26,528 nt of DNA from a virus (taxonomy: Duplodnaviria > Heunggongvirae > Uroviricota > Caudoviricetes): IMG/VR virus record IMGVR_UViG_2563366972_000005, positions 1-26,528 of that record. One strand, given 5' to 3'. The notes below the pieces were generated by a model. It was not told the DNA's origin and did not search any database. It was given only the letters and a program-made list of their open reading frames with translations. Both the position numbers and the translations under genes were made by a program. This document shows positions 5,450 to 26,528 of this stretch, piece by piece. How positions within the stretch are numbered: position 1 is the first letter of the stretch; every line of letters begins with the position of its first letter.

Positions 5450-5575
5450 GTTCTTACGCCTCGGGCTGGCTACTTAACCCCTGACCACTGCCTGGTAACT
5501 CGAAGTATTGCCCTGCATTCTGTGGGGTGGGGTGAGGGAATGAATGAAGTTTAGAAAAATGAACTTTTCAGGTCA

Positions 5576-5594
5576 ATGTTTTTTATCAAAACAT
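5576..5594. promoter_or_regulatory. oL-like operator: perfect inverted repeat ATGTTTT-N5-AAAACAT
   Basis: Palindrome read directly from sequence downstream of the repressor gene; same half-site (GTTTTGAT / ATGTTTT) recurs in the cI-cro intergenic region. Confidence 0.45.
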
Positions 5595-5659
5595 TTTAAG
5601 CAGGCAGCTGTTAAGCCATCACCACGATGGCATACAGTTAATCAAATAGATGAGGTTGG

Positions 5660-6298
5660 TTAAATATCTTGTTGAATTTTAAAGCATACGCCCAATATGC
5701 AAGATAGATCATCCAGCATAATTGAAGGGTAGCGAGGATTCGTGGGGACTAAAAGAATATCCGGCCCTTCTATCTCCAGTTTACGAATGACAGGTGTTGT
5801 GGTCCCTTTGGGTAAGGCAAGGACAATATTTCCTGGTTGTACGGTTCGATCGGGATCAACAAAAACTGTTGAACCATTTGGGATGGAAACTCCCCCACCA
5901 GATGTTGACATACTGTCACTCTCTAGAACAACTGCAAAGGTATTGGCCGGGATTTCTCCGACAAGCTGCACACAAGAGGTTATTGAGGAATTTTTCATAT
6001 AATCACTCCAGCTTGCTGCCTGCTGAAGTGATAGTAGCGGAACCGTTTTTATCGGCGGTAAAGATAGATCAAGCGAATCACCTGTATTTAACTCTCCTCC
6101 ATTAAGAAGCCAATTTTCGTTTACTTTCAATATCTTTGCCAGTGAACTTATGTAACGCGAGGACGGCGCTCCTCCACCGTTCATCCATTGACTTACGGAG
6201 CCTTTTGATGCGCCAGTGGCATTGACAAGGTCTTTGCCTTTCAGGTTTAGCGCATGCATACGTTGGGTTATGCGTTCAGATATTGTTTGCTTGCTCAT
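5660..6298 (-). CDS. CI-like repressor (N-terminal HTH plus C-terminal S24/LexA-like autopeptidase domain)
   Basis: 212 aa; N-terminal HTH-like segment (RMHALNLKGKDLVNATGASKGSVSQW) and C-terminal S24-like segment; divergently oriented from the cro-like gene. Confidence 0.88.
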   Translation of the reverse strand: MSKQTISERITQRMHALNLKGKDLVNATGASKGSVSQWMNGGGAPSSRYISSLAKILKVNENWLLNGGELNTGDSLDLSLPPIKTVPLLSLQQAASWSDYMKNSSITSCVQLVGEIPANTFAVVLESDSMSTSGGGVSIPNGSTVFVDPDRTVQPGNIVLALPKGTTTPVIRKLEIEGPDILLVPTNPRYPSIMLDDLSCILGVCFKIQQDI

Positions 6299-6361
6299 GT
6301 TTTGATTTTAAAACACAGATGGTTTTGTTTCTTGACTTTCTTTGGTTTTGATTATTAAACT
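6297..6361. promoter_or_regulatory. oR-like operator/promoter region with three GTTTTGAT-containing repeats between the repressor and cro-like genes
   Basis: Repeats ATGTTTTGATTTTAAAACAC (overlapping the repressor start codon), GGTTTTGTTTCTTGAC and GGTTTTGATTATTAAAC read from sequence; TTGACT -35-like element within. Confidence 0.5.
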
Positions 6362-6389
6362 TTTGGCGTTCAGTTTTATGGAGCGACTC

Positions 6390-6620
6390 ATGAAAAAATC
6401 AGAAGTATTAGGCTATTTTGGCGGAGTTGTTAAAACAGCCGCAGCTCTAGGAACGTCAAAAACCACAGTCAGCATGTGGGGGGAAGAGGTTCCGTGGAAA
6501 TGGGCGTTGCTAATTCAGGCAGTCACTGCTGGGGCGCTCAAATATGAGTTACACATACCGACGGTTGTCATTCCCGGTTCTGATCATAATCCGCCTTCTA
6601 ACCAAGGGGGGGATTCATGA
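6390..6620 (+). CDS. Cro/YdaS-like small HTH regulator
   Basis: 76 aa from ATG at 6390 (GGAG 5 nt upstream); HTH-like segment VVKTAAALGTSKTTVSMW; first gene rightward of the repressor; stop overlaps next start (ATGA). Confidence 0.72.
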   Translation: MKKSEVLGYFGGVVKTAAALGTSKTTVSMWGEEVPWKWALLIQAVTAGALKYELHIPTVVIPGSDHNPPSNQGGDS

Positions 6621-7042
6621 AAATCAAGCATGAACACATCCGCATGGCGATGAATGCCTGGGCGCGTCCTGATGGCGAAAAAGTTCCAGCAGCTGGAATA
6701 ACCCAGGCTTATTTTGAGTTGGGTATGACGTTTCCTGAACTGTATGACGACAGCCATCCGGAAGCCCTGGCTCGCAATACCCAGAAAATTTTCCGCTGGG
6801 TAGAGAAAGACACCCCTGATGCAGTTGAAAAAATTCAGGCGTTGTTACCAGCGATCGAAAAGGCAATGCCACCTTTGCTGGTGGCCAGAATGCGCAGCCA
6901 CAGTTCAGCTTATTTTCGGGACCTGGTGGAGACGCGGGAGCGATTGGTGAGAGACGCTGATGATTTTGTCGCAGTGGCAATCGCCGGCTTCAATCAGATG
7001 AACCGTGGTGGTCCGGCAGGAAATGCTGTGGCGGTACATTGA
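6617..7042 (+). CDS. YdaT-like protein (CII-like functional equivalent in Rac/CP-933P-type immunity regions)
   Basis: 141 aa starting MKIKHEHI, matching the YdaT N-terminus as I remember it; position directly after the cro/ydaS-like gene; strong AAGGGGGGG Shine-Dalgarno. Confidence 0.65.
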   Translation: MKIKHEHIRMAMNAWARPDGEKVPAAGITQAYFELGMTFPELYDDSHPEALARNTQKIFRWVEKDTPDAVEKIQALLPAIEKAMPPLLVARMRSHSSAYFRDLVETRERLVRDADDFVAVAIAGFNQMNRGGPAGNAVAVH

Positions 7043-8642: not shown

Positions 8643-9389
8643 ATGGAGACCGTTTTTGACGCACTGAAAGCAATGGGAAAAGCCACGTCGGTAGAACTGG
8701 CAGCGCGACTTGATATCAGTCGTGAAGAAGTGCTGAACGAGCTGTGGGAACTGAAAAAGGCTGGCTTCGTTGATAGAAGCGTATACACCTGGCGTGTGGC
8801 TGATAACAACGTTCAGCAGGGACAGCCAGCACAGGCAGTACTGCCGGAAGAAACCACTACGGCAACAGTGACGAAAATTTCGGAGAGCGATTTAACTTCG
8901 ACGATTGAACAACGTGGCCCACAAACGGCGGATGAACTGGCTACGCTGTTCGGTACAACATCCCGCAAAGTGGCTTCAACGCTGGCAATGGCAATCAGCA
9001 AAGGTCGTCTGATTCGCGTAAACCAGAACGGTAAAATTCGTTACTGCATACCAGGTGATAATTTACCAGCAGAGCCGAAAGTTGAATCGGTAGCGGAAAC
9101 CGATGGTAAAGCCTTTCCTCAGCCAGCCGGTGTTGCGTTACCGGTACAGAAAGATGCAACACAGGAAGATATTAAAACAGAAACTGTGGCGGACATTGTG
9201 CAGTCGCTGCCATCGTTTACTGCAACGCGAGAAGATGATTTGATTTTGCCATCGCTGCATATGGCAAATCGCGAACTGCGTAGGGCGAAGAATCATGTCC
9301 AGAAGTGGGAGCGAGTCTGCGCCGCGCTGCGGGAGCTGAACAAGCACCGGGATATGGTTGCCGGGATTTGTCGGAAGTCCGGGCAATGA
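8643..9389 (+). CDS. Hypothetical protein with two tandem winged-helix-like DNA-binding segments and a charged C-terminal helix
   Basis: 248 aa from ATG 8643 (GGGAGG upstream); wHTH-like segments [28 protein letters not shown] and [28 protein letters not shown]. Confidence 0.6.
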
Positions 9390-9518
9390 GCGGATGGTGC
9401 AGGCCTGAAATCATGATACTAACAATGAAGGTAAAATGCATCGGCTGTCTGATTGGTCGTAGTGAGGCGGCGGTCAGGATGAAAGCCCGGGTTAAGGGAA
9501 TAAGCCTGATTCTGCGGG

Positions 9519-9830
9519 GTGATTTTCACCAGTCAACAAAATATCCGTAGCGCGATAACGGTCAAAAATCATGGCGCTGACACTTTTGTGCCGCTGGAGA
9601 TGACTGTACCTAAGTTCAGGGGAGAAGAACACGTCCGGTGGGATGGTCGGGCCAGATTTAAAGGGCAGGTCATGGCTCCAGCCTGTACGCTGGCAATGGA
9701 GGCTGCCTGGCGGGAAATTGATATGGGAACCACGCCACTCAGGGATTTACTGCCGGTCCAGAGAATAAATCCCTGTTACGGTTACACCACTGTGATCTTG
9801 CAAGTGCAGGAAAGTAGGTCTACACGGTAA
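9519..9830 (+). CDS. Hypothetical ORF, possibly a fragment of a decayed gene
   Basis: 103 aa ORF with no convincing RBS; protein-like sequence continues in other frames on both sides (9386-9550 and 9818-9996). Confidence 0.25.
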   Translation: MIFTSQQNIRSAITVKNHGADTFVPLEMTVPKFRGEEHVRWDGRARFKGQVMAPACTLAMEAAWREIDMGTTPLRDLLPVQRINPCYGYTTVILQVQESRSTR

Positions 9831-10056
9831 CGCGAGTGCGTGTAACTTTTGATGTCATTCCCGTAGAAACACCGGACAAATTTTCGCTGACAGGTCATGC
9901 TGAAGGTATAAATCTGCAGATTATGGACAATTACGGATATCCGGCAAGAGCCGGAAAAAGCATGCCGCCTTTAATTCTCAGTGGAAGATGGACTTGATTA
10001 TACTCATTGCATTGTCAGAAATAGTTATCCATTAAAGGCTGGCTATTCCAAACAGG

Positions 10057-10084
10057 ATGTTGATTACAAAAATGTAATCAACAT
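10057..10084. promoter_or_regulatory. Perfect 12-bp inverted repeat ATGTTGATTACA-N4-TGTAATCAACAT upstream of the ModA-like gene; candidate operator
   Basis: Read directly from sequence; lies ~25 bp upstream of a TATAAT hexamer (10111-10116) in a 420 bp AT-rich intergenic region. Confidence 0.4.
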
Positions 10085-10248: not shown

Positions 10249-11007
10249 ATGAGGAACATAATGGCTGGTTTTTTAATATTCCTGTCTTCTGCTGCTTATG
10301 CTGATATCAATCTGTATGGTCCTGGTGGCCCGCATACAGCCTTGCTTGATGCAGCCAAACTTTACACCAAAAAAACAGGTATTATAGTGAACGTTCATTA
10401 CGGCCCACAGAACAAATGGAATGAAGATGCAAAAAAAAATGCAGATATCTTGTTTGGCGCATCAGAACAATCTGCTCTGGCTATCATTCGGGACCATAAA
10501 GACAGCTTCAGTGAAAAAGATATTCAGCCTCTTTATCTGCGAAAAAGTATTTTACTGGTAAAGAAAGGTAATCCTAAAAATATCCGGAGTATTGACGACC
10601 TGACCAGACCCGGGATTGGCATAATTGTTAATGATGGTGGTGGTACCAGTAATACATCAGGCACTGGCGTCTGGGAAGATATTGCCGGACGTAAAGGGAA
10701 TATAGAAACTGTCGCCGCAATCCGAAAAAATATTATTTTATATGCGCCCAATAGCGGAACTGCACGTAAGGCTCTTGAGAATCAGCCTGAAGCAGATGTC
10801 TGGATAACCTGGGCTGACTGGGCAGCCAGTAATCCAGGAATTGGTGATGTCGTGGAAATAGCGCCAGACTACGTGATATGGCGTGATATGAACATTACAG
10901 TACGTCAGGATGCAAATGATGAAACCCGTCGATTTGCAGAATGGCTACAAACCGATGAAGCGGCGCCTGCATTCAAAAAATATGGCTGGACCAGGAAAGG
11001 CACTTGA
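10249..11007 (+). CDS. Solitary periplasmic substrate-binding protein, ModA/WtpA-like (type 2 PBP fold), with signal peptide
   Basis: 252 aa; N-terminal signal peptide (MAGFLIFLSSAAYA); ModA-like landmarks (INLYGPGG...ALLDAAKLYTKKTGIIVNVHYG, ADILFGASEQ, C-terminal FKKYGWTRKG versus ModA FKRYGFT); AAAGGAG Shine-Dalgarno; AT-rich; no permease or ATPase partner nearby. Confidence 0.7.
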   Translation: MRNIMAGFLIFLSSAAYADINLYGPGGPHTALLDAAKLYTKKTGIIVNVHYGPQNKWNEDAKKNADILFGASEQSALAIIRDHKDSFSEKDIQPLYLRKSILLVKKGNPKNIRSIDDLTRPGIGIIVNDGGGTSNTSGTGVWEDIAGRKGNIETVAAIRKNIILYAPNSGTARKALENQPEADVWITWADWAASNPGIGDVVEIAPDYVIWRDMNITVRQDANDETRRFAEWLQTDEAAPAFKKYGWTRKGT

Positions 11008-11012
11008 CATCC

Positions 11013-11045
11013 ATCCACGTCCTTCAGGACGTGGATTCTTTTTCC
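11013..11045 (+). terminator. Rho-independent terminator after the ModA-like gene
   Basis: Perfect 10-bp stem ATCCACGTCC/GGACGTGGAT with TTCA loop followed by TCTTTTTCC. Confidence 0.7.
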
Positions 11046-11130: not shown

Positions 11131-11154
11131 CCGATATGGGAATTCCCATATCGG
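11131..11154. repeat. Perfect 24-bp palindrome CCGATATGGGAATTCCCATATCGG
   Basis: Read directly; centred on GAATTC; lies in the structured leader region upstream of hok. Confidence 0.5.
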
Positions 11155-21958: not shown

Positions 21959-22173
21959 AAAAAGATGAGATTTTCCAGATGCTGGTTATCGTGCGTCAGG
22001 CATACAGGGATTCCCTGGATGGTAAAAGTGTGTCTTTTACCGGGGTGAATGGCAGGGCGATCACCAACCATGATCCTGTTGCATTGCGCAGGGAGCTTGA
22101 ATACTGGGAAAAACGCTGGGCGGCGGCCTGCCAGCCCACAAGGAAACCGTACAAACTCGCCCGTTTCTCCTGA
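21949..22173 (+). CDS. Head-tail joining protein, gpW-like
   Basis: ~72 aa; position between terminase and portal and size match lambda W; probable GTG start at 21955 with GGAGG 6 nt upstream. Confidence 0.65.
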   Translation: MVVKKDEIFQMLVIVRQAYRDSLDGKSVSFTGVNGRAITNHDPVALRRELEYWEKRWAAACQPTRKPYKLARFS

Positions 22174-26142: not shown

Positions 26143-26528
26143 TGAACAGGTTTCGACGCCTGCTTACAAACGCGGATGCCCGGATAACCCGGGCATTTGC
26201 TGAAGAGGTACCTGCATATCTGTTTCTTCAGGGAGGAGAAAAACGGCCTGTAATGGTGATATTCGAATCGCCGGATGCAACCGTCGGGATCCGTGACGGC
26301 GGTGAAATTAATGATCATGCACCAGCCTTCAGTGCTATGACAGCAGATATTTCCGGGTTAATGAAACGTGATCAGGTGGAAATTAATGCTGATGTTTTTC
26401 ATGTGACGCATATTGGCGCTGATGAGGAAGGGCGTACACGGGTTACTCTCGCGCGGGGAGAACCCGGAAGAAGTACACCTGCTGCACCGGAACGACCGAG
26501 TAAACGTTATGGCAGTCAGAGAGCATGA
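26142..26528 (+). CDS. Head-tail connector protein, lambda FII-like
   Basis: 128 aa; start overlaps upstream stop (TGATG); pattern ADARITRAF...VIFESPD...MKRDQVEI...V parallels lambda FII (ADETIRGYMG...GVFDDPE...LRRGDTLTI...V); stop codon at window end. Confidence 0.55.
   Translation: MNRFRRLLTNADARITRAFAEEVPAYLFLQGGEKRPVMVIFESPDATVGIRDGGEINDHAPAFSAMTADISGLMKRDQVEINADVFHVTHIGADEEGRTRVTLARGEPGRSTPAAPERPSKRYGSQRA

Follow-up and report, generated by a model that had tools for sequence, protein, structure and literature searches.

Switches comparable to the one described here belong to two Escherichia coli prophages. The switch of CP-933P (E. coli O157:H7) comprises PaaR2, YdaS, and YdaT (Jurenas et al. 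2021, PMC8630535; Prolic-Kalinsek et al. 2023, PMC9986795), and its paaR2 mRNA is leaderless by experiment, with 5′ RACE placing the +1 at the ATG and N-terminal sequencing in agreement (PMC8630535; PMC9986795). The switch of Rac (E. coli K-12) comprises RacR, YdaS, and YdaT, with the operator (T/A)TAGGC-N3-GCCTA(T/A); the stretch between repressor and cro holds three operators, one of which (O3) overlaps the initiating ATG of racR, and the strongest racR promoter yields a leaderless transcript (PMC9638921).

Our analysis of a viral sequence of 26,528 nucleotides (the window) suggests, with a probability of about 0.7, that positions 5548-6620 are the immunity module of a Rac-like lambdoid prophage, working by the mechanism proposed below. 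An earlier note on this DNA had likened the repeats on either side of a CI-like gene to oL and oR; the HTH_3 and Peptidase_S24 domains of the gene product, the divergent P22_Cro-family gene, and the placement of the repeats over pR and pL all agree with that reading.

Repressor, Cro-like protein, and probable operator sites

The repressor (minus strand) and cro (plus strand) are divergent, with start codons 91 bp apart, as in lambdoid switches (Table 1). The repressor matches the Pfam families Peptidase_S24 (2e-13) and HTH_3, and its best match among solved structures (PDB) is full-length lambda CI; the 434 repressor and P22 C2 were also matched, the latter with ~28% identity over nearly the full length and similar N-terminal domains. 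Residues Ser129 (SDSM) and Lys173 (RKL) align with S149 and K192 of lambda CI, so the Ser/Lys dyad is present. By alignment, the Ala-Gly self-cleavage site appears to be missing from the repressor: lambda VQA/GMF stands against QQA/ASW; among relatives the scissile position is A-E, A-V, or A-A, and A-G is kept only in a distant lineage (L332). The start codon is placed at 6298-6296 because an in-frame TAA lies four codons upstream and codons 2-13 are kept at the protein level in a relative from Symbiopectobacterium (L007; 48% identical); the TAA also leaves no room for an N-terminal extension. In one RefSeq record the annotation is confined to the last 112 codons (C-terminal) of the intact 212-codon gene, perhaps because the true start lacks a Shine-Dalgarno sequence. 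The truncated repressor that this annotation suggested for O157:H7 was rejected, as translation gives the intact 212-aa open reading frame.

Table 1. Features of the putative immunity module (window coordinates)
Feature	Position	Strand	Description
pL-like promoter	5548-5576	-	TTGACC, 17 nt, TAAACT; consensus scan; reads leftward into DUF1391, DicB, and exonuclease genes
Possible weak operator, OL1-like	5549-5564		GTTTAGAAAAATGAAC; overlaps pL -10
Operator OL2	5575-5595		core GTTTTGATAAAAAAC (minus strand, 5578-5592); 15 bp here, 16 bp in most relatives
CI-like repressor gene	5660-6298	-	212 aa; HTH N-terminal, S24 peptidase domain C-terminal
Operator site A (OR3-like)	6299-6314		GTTTTGATTTTAAAAC; -16 to -1 of repressor ATG; holds putative pRM -10
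Putative pRM -10	6305-6310	-	TAAAAT, then CAAAAC (6 nt), then A of ATG at 6298 as proposed +1; read from sequence
Operator site B (OR2-like half dyad)	6322-6337		GTTTTGTTTCTTGACT; good half GTTTT, other half is pR -35 TTGACT (6332-6337)
pR-like promoter for cro	6332-6361	+	TTGACT, 18 nt, TAAACT; sigma-70-like consensus scan
Operator site C (OR1-like)	6345-6360		GTTTTGATTATTAAAC; overlaps pR -10 TAAACT (6356-6361)
Cro-like gene	6390-6620	+	76 aa; P22_Cro family (Pfam PF14549, 9e-16); PDB match 1rzs (P22 Cro)

Three repeats had been reported at 6297-6361, and a palindrome with an N5 spacing on the other side of the gene. The repeats are real and their coordinates hold, with start-to-start steps of 23 and 23 bp; two of the three are GTTTTGAT (6299-6306 and 6345-6352) and the middle one is GTTTTGTT (6322-6329). 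They are best read, however, as 16-bp dyads of the form GTTT(T/A)-N6-(A/T)AAAC, and the middle one is a half dyad only. These dyads are very probably operators for the repressor and Cro. Related dyads lie on the pR hexamers and on the putative pRM -10, and further related sites lie at pL, as expected of a lambdoid switch. The first repeat adjoins the repressor start codon, since the ATG ends at 6298 and the repeat runs from 6299; an extended form, ATGTTTT...AAAACAC (6297-6316), takes in two bases of the ATG.

To the left of the repressor gene, the palindrome ATGTTTT-N5-AAAACAT was found exactly where the earlier note placed it (5576-5594), within a perfect 8-5-8 inverted repeat, AATGTTTT-TTATC-AAAACATT, that constitutes OL2. 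The OL2 core lies just upstream of the pL -35, which the whole palindrome overlaps by 2 bp, and the reverse complement of GTTTTGAT is also found in it (5585-5592). OL2 is nearly invariant among relatives save for the length of an A-run, and the adjacent pL spacer is hypervariable. The window's N5 spacing is a minority allele with an A-run 1 bp shorter than usual (seven A in 110 IMG/VR contigs, the window's six A in 4); the usual form has N6, as at sites A and C. The N5 spacer would put the two half-sites 1 bp out of register, a point that counts against the proposed mechanism.

The proposal that sites are shared by both sides of the repressor gene stands, although its list missed a possible weaker site, OL1-like, on the pL -10. 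A strong dyad occupies the equivalent place in three other lineages (L007, L285, and L205); the left half of the window's site (GTTCA) varies among close relatives, which counts against it. The element at the pL position, TTGACx-(~16-17 nt)-TAAACT, is also found in CP-933P and in L007, where the spacer is 17 nt. Two candidate terminators were considered. The left palindrome was rejected as one, since it is A/T-only, lies upstream of pL, forms an ssDNA hairpin of just -4.9 kcal/mol, and varies in spacer length by allele; a GCCATC-N5-GATGGC hairpin (5612-5634), as a strong terminator of the repressor mRNA, lacks statistical support (z = -1.4) and has no T-run.

Conservation of the sites

Simple word counts were discarded as evidence, the words being weakly enriched when taken alone. 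GTTTTGAT has four matches against 1.45 expected, a number reached in 6 of 100 shuffles (not significant); GTTTT-N6-AAAAC with at most one mismatch has five against 1.47 expected, reached in 5 of 100. Perfect palindromes with 8-nt arms and loops of 4-6 nt have nine matches at six places in the whole window (shuffle mean, 1.37); such palindromes are over-represented across the window, and the left one is non-random yet not unique. Its DNA fold has z = -5.0 relative to shuffles.

The convincing evidence for operators is comparative. Among sequenced phages no relatives at intermediate distance were found: a tblastn search of 50,697 phage records with the repressor returned matches of at least 99% or at most ~46% identity and none between, the full-length matches below the upper class having ~30% identity or less. 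A protein search gave 12 close homologs only, and a scan of GTDB species representatives gave a single relative, L007, which belongs to another genus. A matrix was made solely from the sites of L007 and applied to the ~26,500 positions of the window; its top three matches, at 6299 (19.3 bits), 6345 (19.0 bits), and 5549 (16.6 bits), all fall in the two intergenic regions that flank the repressor gene, and the reciprocal matrix recovers the L007 sites. Site B received no full-site score with the L007-only matrix; an equivalent half dyad, GATCAA...AAAAC, occupies its position in L007, L285, L205, and L280.

What the comparison shows directly is that the sites exist, are conserved, and keep fixed positions. 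Among relatives, 1 of 48 OR columns is variable inside the sites and 17 of 43 outside them (Fisher p = 6e-6); the one variable column is among the 16 of site A, and sites B and C are invariant. Five lineages, with repressors 39-100% identical, have a dyad exactly at -16 to -1 of the ATG, another at -61 or -62, a half dyad between, and two to three dyads beyond the 3′ end of the gene; their repressors keep SKG(S/A)VSQW, a motif of the recognition helix. The expectation that the repeats should be conserved in phages with homologous repressors is therefore borne out, since spacers vary and the repeats are kept at the same offsets down to 39% identity. The sites also overlap promoter hexamers, and promoters alone could explain part of the conservation.

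The repressor transcript and a proposed mechanism

No purine-rich Shine-Dalgarno sequence was found in the 25 nt upstream of the repressor ATG (ACCATCTGTGTTTTAAAATCAAAAC), whereas cro has GGAG at 6380-6383; an upstream start codon for the repressor is excluded. With TAAAAT placed 6 nt upstream of the ATG and the Shine-Dalgarno sequence absent, an mRNA starting at the A of the ATG appears the most likely product, and we consider it probable that the repressor transcript is leaderless. Such a transcript is plausible here: it agrees with the spacing of the elements and has been demonstrated by experiment in the sibling prophages CP-933P and Rac. The -35 candidate of pRM is poor (AAGAAA, 3/6), pRM was not called by the consensus promoter scan, and the -35 hexamers of pR and pRM overlap (6332-6337 and 6328-6333). 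Counted from 6298 as the proposed +1, site B covers -24 to -39 and is centered at about -31.5 rather than at the pRM-activating position (about -42). Given this position and the overlapping -35 hexamers, lambda-style activation of pRM from a middle site does not fit, and it was ruled out on geometry. In lineage L280 the bases before the ATG (AAAGGTGAAC) include AGG 5 nt ahead of it and could serve as a short Shine-Dalgarno sequence; some members of the clade may therefore not make a leaderless transcript.

In the mechanism that we propose, the CI-type repressor (presumably a dimer) and the divergent P22-Cro-type protein would both recognize the 16-bp dyads. The identity of the binding protein, the order in which the sites are filled, cooperativity, and the transcription start are all predictions. 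Half-site B, on the pR -35, would probably be filled cooperatively and, together with C on the pR -10, would silence cro, ydaT, and the genes for replication. Site A would cover the -10 and start point of the repressor promoter, so that excess repressor, or Cro, bound there would switch repressor synthesis off. OL2, which borders the pL -35 on its upstream side, would act with the weak OL1-like site over the pL -10 to repress leftward early transcription. The repressor mRNA would begin at the A of its ATG, and pRM would more likely be favored because blocking of pR lifts the competition between the two promoters, a speculative step. No site matches the symmetric consensus better than site A; tightest binding there would make the repressor shut off its own synthesis first, which is awkward for maintaining lysogeny.

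An operator at -16 to -1 of a leaderless transcript, combined with overlapping -35 hexamers, would imply promoter competition and pure negative autoregulation. Likewise, replacement of Ala-Gly by Ala-Ala, Ala-Glu, or Ala-Val with retention of the Ser/Lys dyad would imply that induction is not by canonical RecA-stimulated self-cleavage. We consider less likely, and offer only tentatively, the broader idea that this clade of S24 repressors departs from lambda CI on both counts, having lost Ala-Gly and being maintained by competition and negative autoregulation instead of activation from OR2.

The alternative to which we give most weight, although we consider it unlikely, accepts the operators and has the repressor mRNA come from a promoter further upstream, for example a YdaT-dependent, pRE-like promoter located in cro or where cro meets ydaT, or from a start inside B or C. 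Translation would then proceed without a Shine-Dalgarno sequence through an A/U-rich leader, and site A would act as a roadblock or a promoter-proximal operator. The weak pRM -35 and the failure of the scan to call pRM are in keeping with this, as are a leftward promoter-like TTAACA-18-AATACT inside cro (6433-6404), the YdaT-controlled PRE directed at the repressor in CP-933P, and the AGG of L280. Against it are the position of TAAAAT, exactly -12 to -7 of the ATG, the missing Shine-Dalgarno sequence, and the leaderless repressor mRNAs made from the equivalent promoter in lambda, CP-933P, and Rac; moreover, pRE-type and leaderless pRM transcripts can coexist, as in lambda, so the two accounts are partly complementary.

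Binding of the repeats by some other protein in place of the repressor, whether Cro alone or the CII analog YdaT, is very improbable. CP-933P YdaT recognizes TTGATT-N6-AATCAA, the window's YdaT is ~83% identical to it, and the published half-site TTGATT lies inside GTTTTGATT of sites A and C (6301-6306 and 6347-6352). YdaT was nevertheless rejected as the binder of the GTTTTGATT repeats: A and C lack the second half-site at N6 and match only with three mismatches, the OR dyads of L007, L285, and L205 keep GTTT...AAAC without TTGATT, and an OM-type YdaT site is present where expected, at the cro/ydaT junction (6610-6627). The sites track the repressor lineage, whose recognition helix is conserved, and binding by Cro alongside the repressor is expected in any case, so that Cro is no rival. 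A chance likeness of A/T-rich promoter regions, without dedicated operators, is strongly disfavored; the region is indeed A/T-rich, the pL and pR hexamers are themselves alike, and GTTTTGAT alone is not significantly enriched, but this reading is at odds with the cross-lineage matrix ranking, the offsets fixed across 39-100% identity, the contrast between sites and spacers, and the fold of the palindrome.

Distribution and comparison with known switches

Of 5426 complete E. coli genomes, 1042 (~19%) carry the immunity type, O157:H7 and O103:H2 among them. The analysis supplies a likely operator, GTTT(T/A)-N6-(A/T)AAAC, and a promoter layout for an uncharacterized immunity type, which should aid the prediction of homo-immunity among Rac-like prophages. 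Within this prophage family, leaderless repressor genes with an operator on or beside the start codon seem to be a recurring design, shared by the unrelated CI-type, PaaR2, and RacR repressors; as the arrangement is already shown by experiment in the sibling prophages, it is ordinary yet well supported, and the current understanding of phage switches is unchanged.

With CP-933P, the window shares membership of one prophage family, with common flanking modules: YdaT is ~83% identical, and the pL leader and the DUF1391/DicB side are shared. The intergenic regions are similarly short (97 bp in CP-933P, 91 bp in the window), the layout GATAAT-TACCAC-ATG has the same -10, N6, and ATG, and GTTTA-type palindromes are repeated at OR and PL. 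In contrast, the PaaR2 repressor lacks an S24 domain and has a toxin-antitoxin pair behind it, and YdaS shows no relation to the Cro of the window. The operators are four 18-bp palindromes with the half-site GTTTAGTAA, and IR1 is 11 bp more distant from the ATG. With Rac, the window shares three intergenic operators, one of them at the start codon, and the sequence to the left of the immunity module matches Rac; RacR, however, is unrelated to the window's repressor, lacks an S24 domain, and has a different operator. Neither prophage thus combines a homologous repressor with the same operator, and only the flanking modules are shared. The comparison with Rac and CP-933P that had been suggested earlier therefore yields a precedent for the start-codon operator and the leaderless transcript, but not a common operator sequence or repressor; because PaaR2 and RacR are unrelated to the window's repressor and their operators differ, both are analogs and not the same immunity type.

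The immC region of P22 (C2/Cro) is similar in that the window's Cro belongs to the P22_Cro family and the N-terminal domain of the repressor resembles that of C2; overall repressor identity is low, and the P22 operator sequences presumably differ from those of the window.

Lambda offers a parallel in organization. Both switches have a divergent repressor and cro, a repressor built of an HTH and an S24 domain, three OR sites ~23 bp apart over pR and pRM, and related sites at pL beyond the repressor gene; the -10, 6 nt, and ATG of the leaderless lambda cI (TAGATT-TAACGT-ATG) correspond to TAAAAT-CAAAAC-ATG in the window. The differences lie in the operators and their use. Lambda has 17-bp TATCACCGC-type sites and the window a 16-bp GTTT-N8-AAAC dyad; OR3 is at -11 to -27, whereas the window's promoter-proximal site is at -16 to -1; the middle site is at -42 of pRM in lambda but at about -31.5 in the window, where class II activation does not fit; and lambda has OL1-3, whereas the window's OL shows only a strong site and a weak one. 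In its proteins the window differs from lambda in having a P22-family Cro, YdaT as the CII analog, and a repressor in which the scissile Ala-Gly has become Ala-Ala.

Probable operators on both sides of the repressor gene

Our analysis confirms that operator-like repeats flank the repressor gene, as proposed in an earlier note on this DNA. The left palindrome is present, and the right-hand repeats are two copies of GTTTTGAT, starting at 6299 and 6345, with GTTTTGTT between them, starting at 6322. The dyad unit is 16 bp; sites A and C (the OR3- and OR1-like candidates) both match GTTT-N8-AAAC. The positions of the pR and pL hexamers predicted by consensus scan place site C on the pR -10, site B (the OR2-like half-dyad) on the pR -35, and the left palindrome (OL2) against the pL -35.

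The interpretation in that note is also supported, with two corrections on the left side. Most relatives carry GTTTTGATAAAAAAAC at the left palindrome, with seven A and the N6 spacing of sites A and C, so the N5 spacing is unusual; the window OL2 has six A (an A/T run at its centre, 5583-5588). Exact-match scans of IMG/VR found the seven-A form in 110 contigs and the six-A form in 4 (about 96% seven-A). The A-run of the window OL2 is thus contracted by 1 bp, which could reflect either a true variant that binds more weakly or a homopolymer error in sequencing. A second candidate site near pL had been overlooked; it was exposed by a matrix trained on L007 (Symbiopectobacterium purcellii). Its equivalent is a strong dyad in L007 and in two related loci (L285 and L205), and its left half varies in the E. 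coli lineage (GTTCA, GTTCG, GTTTG, and GCTCA). We rate it a candidate operator, weak or decaying.

Coordinates of features in and around the immunity region
Feature	Position	Strand or direction	Sequence or remark
Second left candidate	5549-5564		GTTTAGAAAAATGAAC; on pL -10
pL	5576-5571, 5553-5548	leftward	TTGACC, 17 nt, TAAACT; predicted
OL2	5575-5595		AATGTTTT-N5-AAAACATT
Hairpin	5612-5634		GCCATC-N5-GATGGC; directly 3' of repressor stop codon
Repressor ORF	5660-6298	minus	212 codons; HTH_3 and Peptidase_S24 domains
Site A	6299-6314	read on plus	GTTTTGATTTTAAAAC
Site B	6322-6337	read on plus	GTTTTGTTTCTTGACT; one good half, the other being the pR -35 hexamer
pR	6332-6337, 6356-6361		TTGACT, 18 nt, TAAACT; predicted
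Site C	6345-6360	read on plus	GTTTTGATTATTAAAC
cro (P22_Cro family)	6390-6620	plus	76 codons; 91 bp right of repressor ORF
Promoter-like site	6404-6433	minus	TTAACA-18-AATACT; in 5' part of cro, aimed at repressor gene
Junction site	6610-6627		GGGATTCATGAAAATCAA; cro/ydaT junction
YdaT-family gene	6617-7042		After cro; DnaT-like replication gene next
11-6-11 palindrome	10057-10084		ATGTTGATTAC-AAAAAT-GTAATCAACAT; perfect; between ORFs 9519-9830 and 10249-11007
Perfect palindrome	11014-11035		TCCACGTCCTTCAGGACGTGGA
Perfect palindrome	11132-11153		CGATATGGGAATTCCCATATCG
Perfect palindrome	22021-22041		GGTAAAAG-N5-CTTTTACC
Perfect palindrome	26176-26196		ATGCCCGG-N5-CCGGGCAT

Conservation of the probable operators among relatives

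Word counts of the repeats are by themselves weak evidence against chance, and relatives were therefore compared. Of 5426 complete E. coli genomes, 1042 contain the immunity region with 98% identity or above, as do many IMG/VR contigs; rarer variants encode repressors 84-85% identical. Among close relatives, 1 of 48 right-operator columns varies within sites A, B, and C versus 17 of 43 outside them (Fisher p = 6e-6), most changes falling in the cro leader and the 7-bp spacer between B and A. On the left, the palindrome is almost invariant and the neighbouring pL spacer (CTGAAAA) hypervariable.

A GTDB scan yielded a single distant relative, L007, whose repressor is 48% identical and shares the recognition-helix motif SKGSVSQW. 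A weight matrix built from four L007 dyads and nothing else, scanned across the whole 26.5-kb window, gave as its top three positions 6299 (19.3 bits), 6345 (19.0), and 5549 (16.6). Each of these falls in one of the two intergenic regions flanking the repressor, and the L007 sites were recovered when the test was run reciprocally. Additional lineages (L205, L280, L285, and L332) came from scans of IMG/VR and of metagenomes. Across the five lineages with 39-100% repressor identity, one dyad lies at exactly -16 to -1 of the repressor ATG and another begins at -61 or -62, with a half dyad, (A/G)(G/A)TCAA...AAAC, in between; these lineages also have two or three dyads 60-125 nt 3' of the stop codon. 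In L332 (37% identity) the ATG forms the centre of the proximal dyad. The repeats are thus kept with homologous repressors, at fixed offsets, and the idea survives the refutation test named in the earlier note, under which phages with homologous repressors would lack them.

Repressor start and promoter geometry

Four codons before the ATG at 6298 there is an in-frame TAA, and residues 2-13 are conserved at the protein level in L007. No Shine-Dalgarno sequence occurs in the 25 nt upstream (ACCATCTGTGTTTTAAAATCAAAAC); cro, by contrast, has GGAG six nt before its ATG. TAAAAT is found at -12 to -7, counting from the A of the repressor ATG, the same arrangement of -10, 6 nt, and ATG as in lambda (TAGATT-TAACGT-ATG, confirmed on NC_001416) and CP-933P (GATAAT-TACCAC-ATG). 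The CP-933P paaR2 transcript is leaderless by 5' RACE, N-terminal sequencing, and mass spectrometry (PMC8630535); in Rac, the transcript from the strongest racR promoter is likewise leaderless, and operator O3 overlaps the start codon of racR (PMC9638921). On this evidence a leaderless repressor transcript, suggested in the earlier note, is the likeliest reading by geometry and analogy (probability about 0.6). The candidate pRM -35 is poor, which would suit a pRE-type transcript entering from the cro/ydaT side, a possible alternative. The promoter-like site within cro could be a pRE-like promoter, an antisense promoter, or a chance match.

The 212-codon ORF is also intact at 9222-9860 of locus L088, from E. 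coli O157:H7 MB9-1 (NZ_CP040107), where RefSeq gives only a 112-codon "LexA family protein"; an internal start may have been picked because the true one has no Shine-Dalgarno sequence. Other truncated calls of this kind may be among the database entries of 178 aa and 149-175 aa.

Relative to pR the sites lie much as in lambda, the centre of C being near -15 and that of B near -38. The pR and pRM start points are about 70 bp apart, and those of lambda 83 bp. Counted from the proposed pRM start, site A spans -1 to -16 and site B -24 to -39, and the candidate pRM -35 (6328-6333) overlaps that of pR. Repressor at B therefore could not activate pRM in the way that lambda CI, placed at -42, does. 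In the simplest model that we infer, repressor at C (plus B) would displace RNA polymerase from the strong pR, thereby freeing the overlapping weak pRM, which Cro, or high-level repressor, would shut off at A.

The repressor, its neighbours, and sibling prophage switches

The best solved relatives of the repressor are full-length lambda CI, 434 repressor, and the P22 C2 N-terminal domain. Ala-Ala (A94-A95; 6013-6018, minus strand) aligns with the scissile Ala111-Gly112 of lambda CI; related lineages (L001, L004, L007, L205, L280, and L285) have Ala-Glu, Ala-Val, or Ala-Ala, and only L332, the most distant, retains Ala-Gly. Catalytic Ser129 and Lys173 are retained. This pattern suggests that the clade may not be inducible via canonical RecA-stimulated self-cleavage; the absent Ala-Gly site and the non-lambda promoter geometry are the side observations most deserving follow-up. 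In the phage database no characterised phage has this repressor; the close matches are three near-identical induced prophages, the rest being at most about 46% identical.

The hairpin has conserved stems and a variable loop among relatives; its fold is unexceptional (z = -1.4) and it lacks the T-run of a terminator-like hairpin at the equivalent place in L007. Perfect palindromes with arms of at least 8 nt give 9 hits in the window versus 1.4 expected; the 11-6-11 palindrome includes the YdaT-type half-sites TTGATT and AATCAA, spaced N10 rather than N6. The junction site corresponds to TTGATTCATGAAAATCAA, the YdaT OM site of CP-933P, which was footprinted by experiment. In the window copy, the immunity cassette meets the shared ydaT module at a mosaic boundary within the site, so that the right half-site alone is intact.

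To the left of the repressor lie DUF1391, small ORFs, and a large exonuclease gene, and thousands of E. coli prophages, K-12 Rac included, match the first ~100 nt to the left of pL. The window YdaT is ~83% identical to that of CP-933P (PDB 8bt1). The module flanks are thus common to the window, Rac, and CP-933P, but the cassettes differ: CP-933P has PaaR2, a YdaS unrelated to the window Cro, and GTTTAGTAA half-sites, and Rac has RacR and the operator TAGGC-N3-GCCTA. By sequence comparison, the window repressor, Cro, and operators form a cassette distinct from both, a classic case of lambdoid mosaicism. The region adds an immunity type to a prophage family in which experiments have already shown the same architecture.
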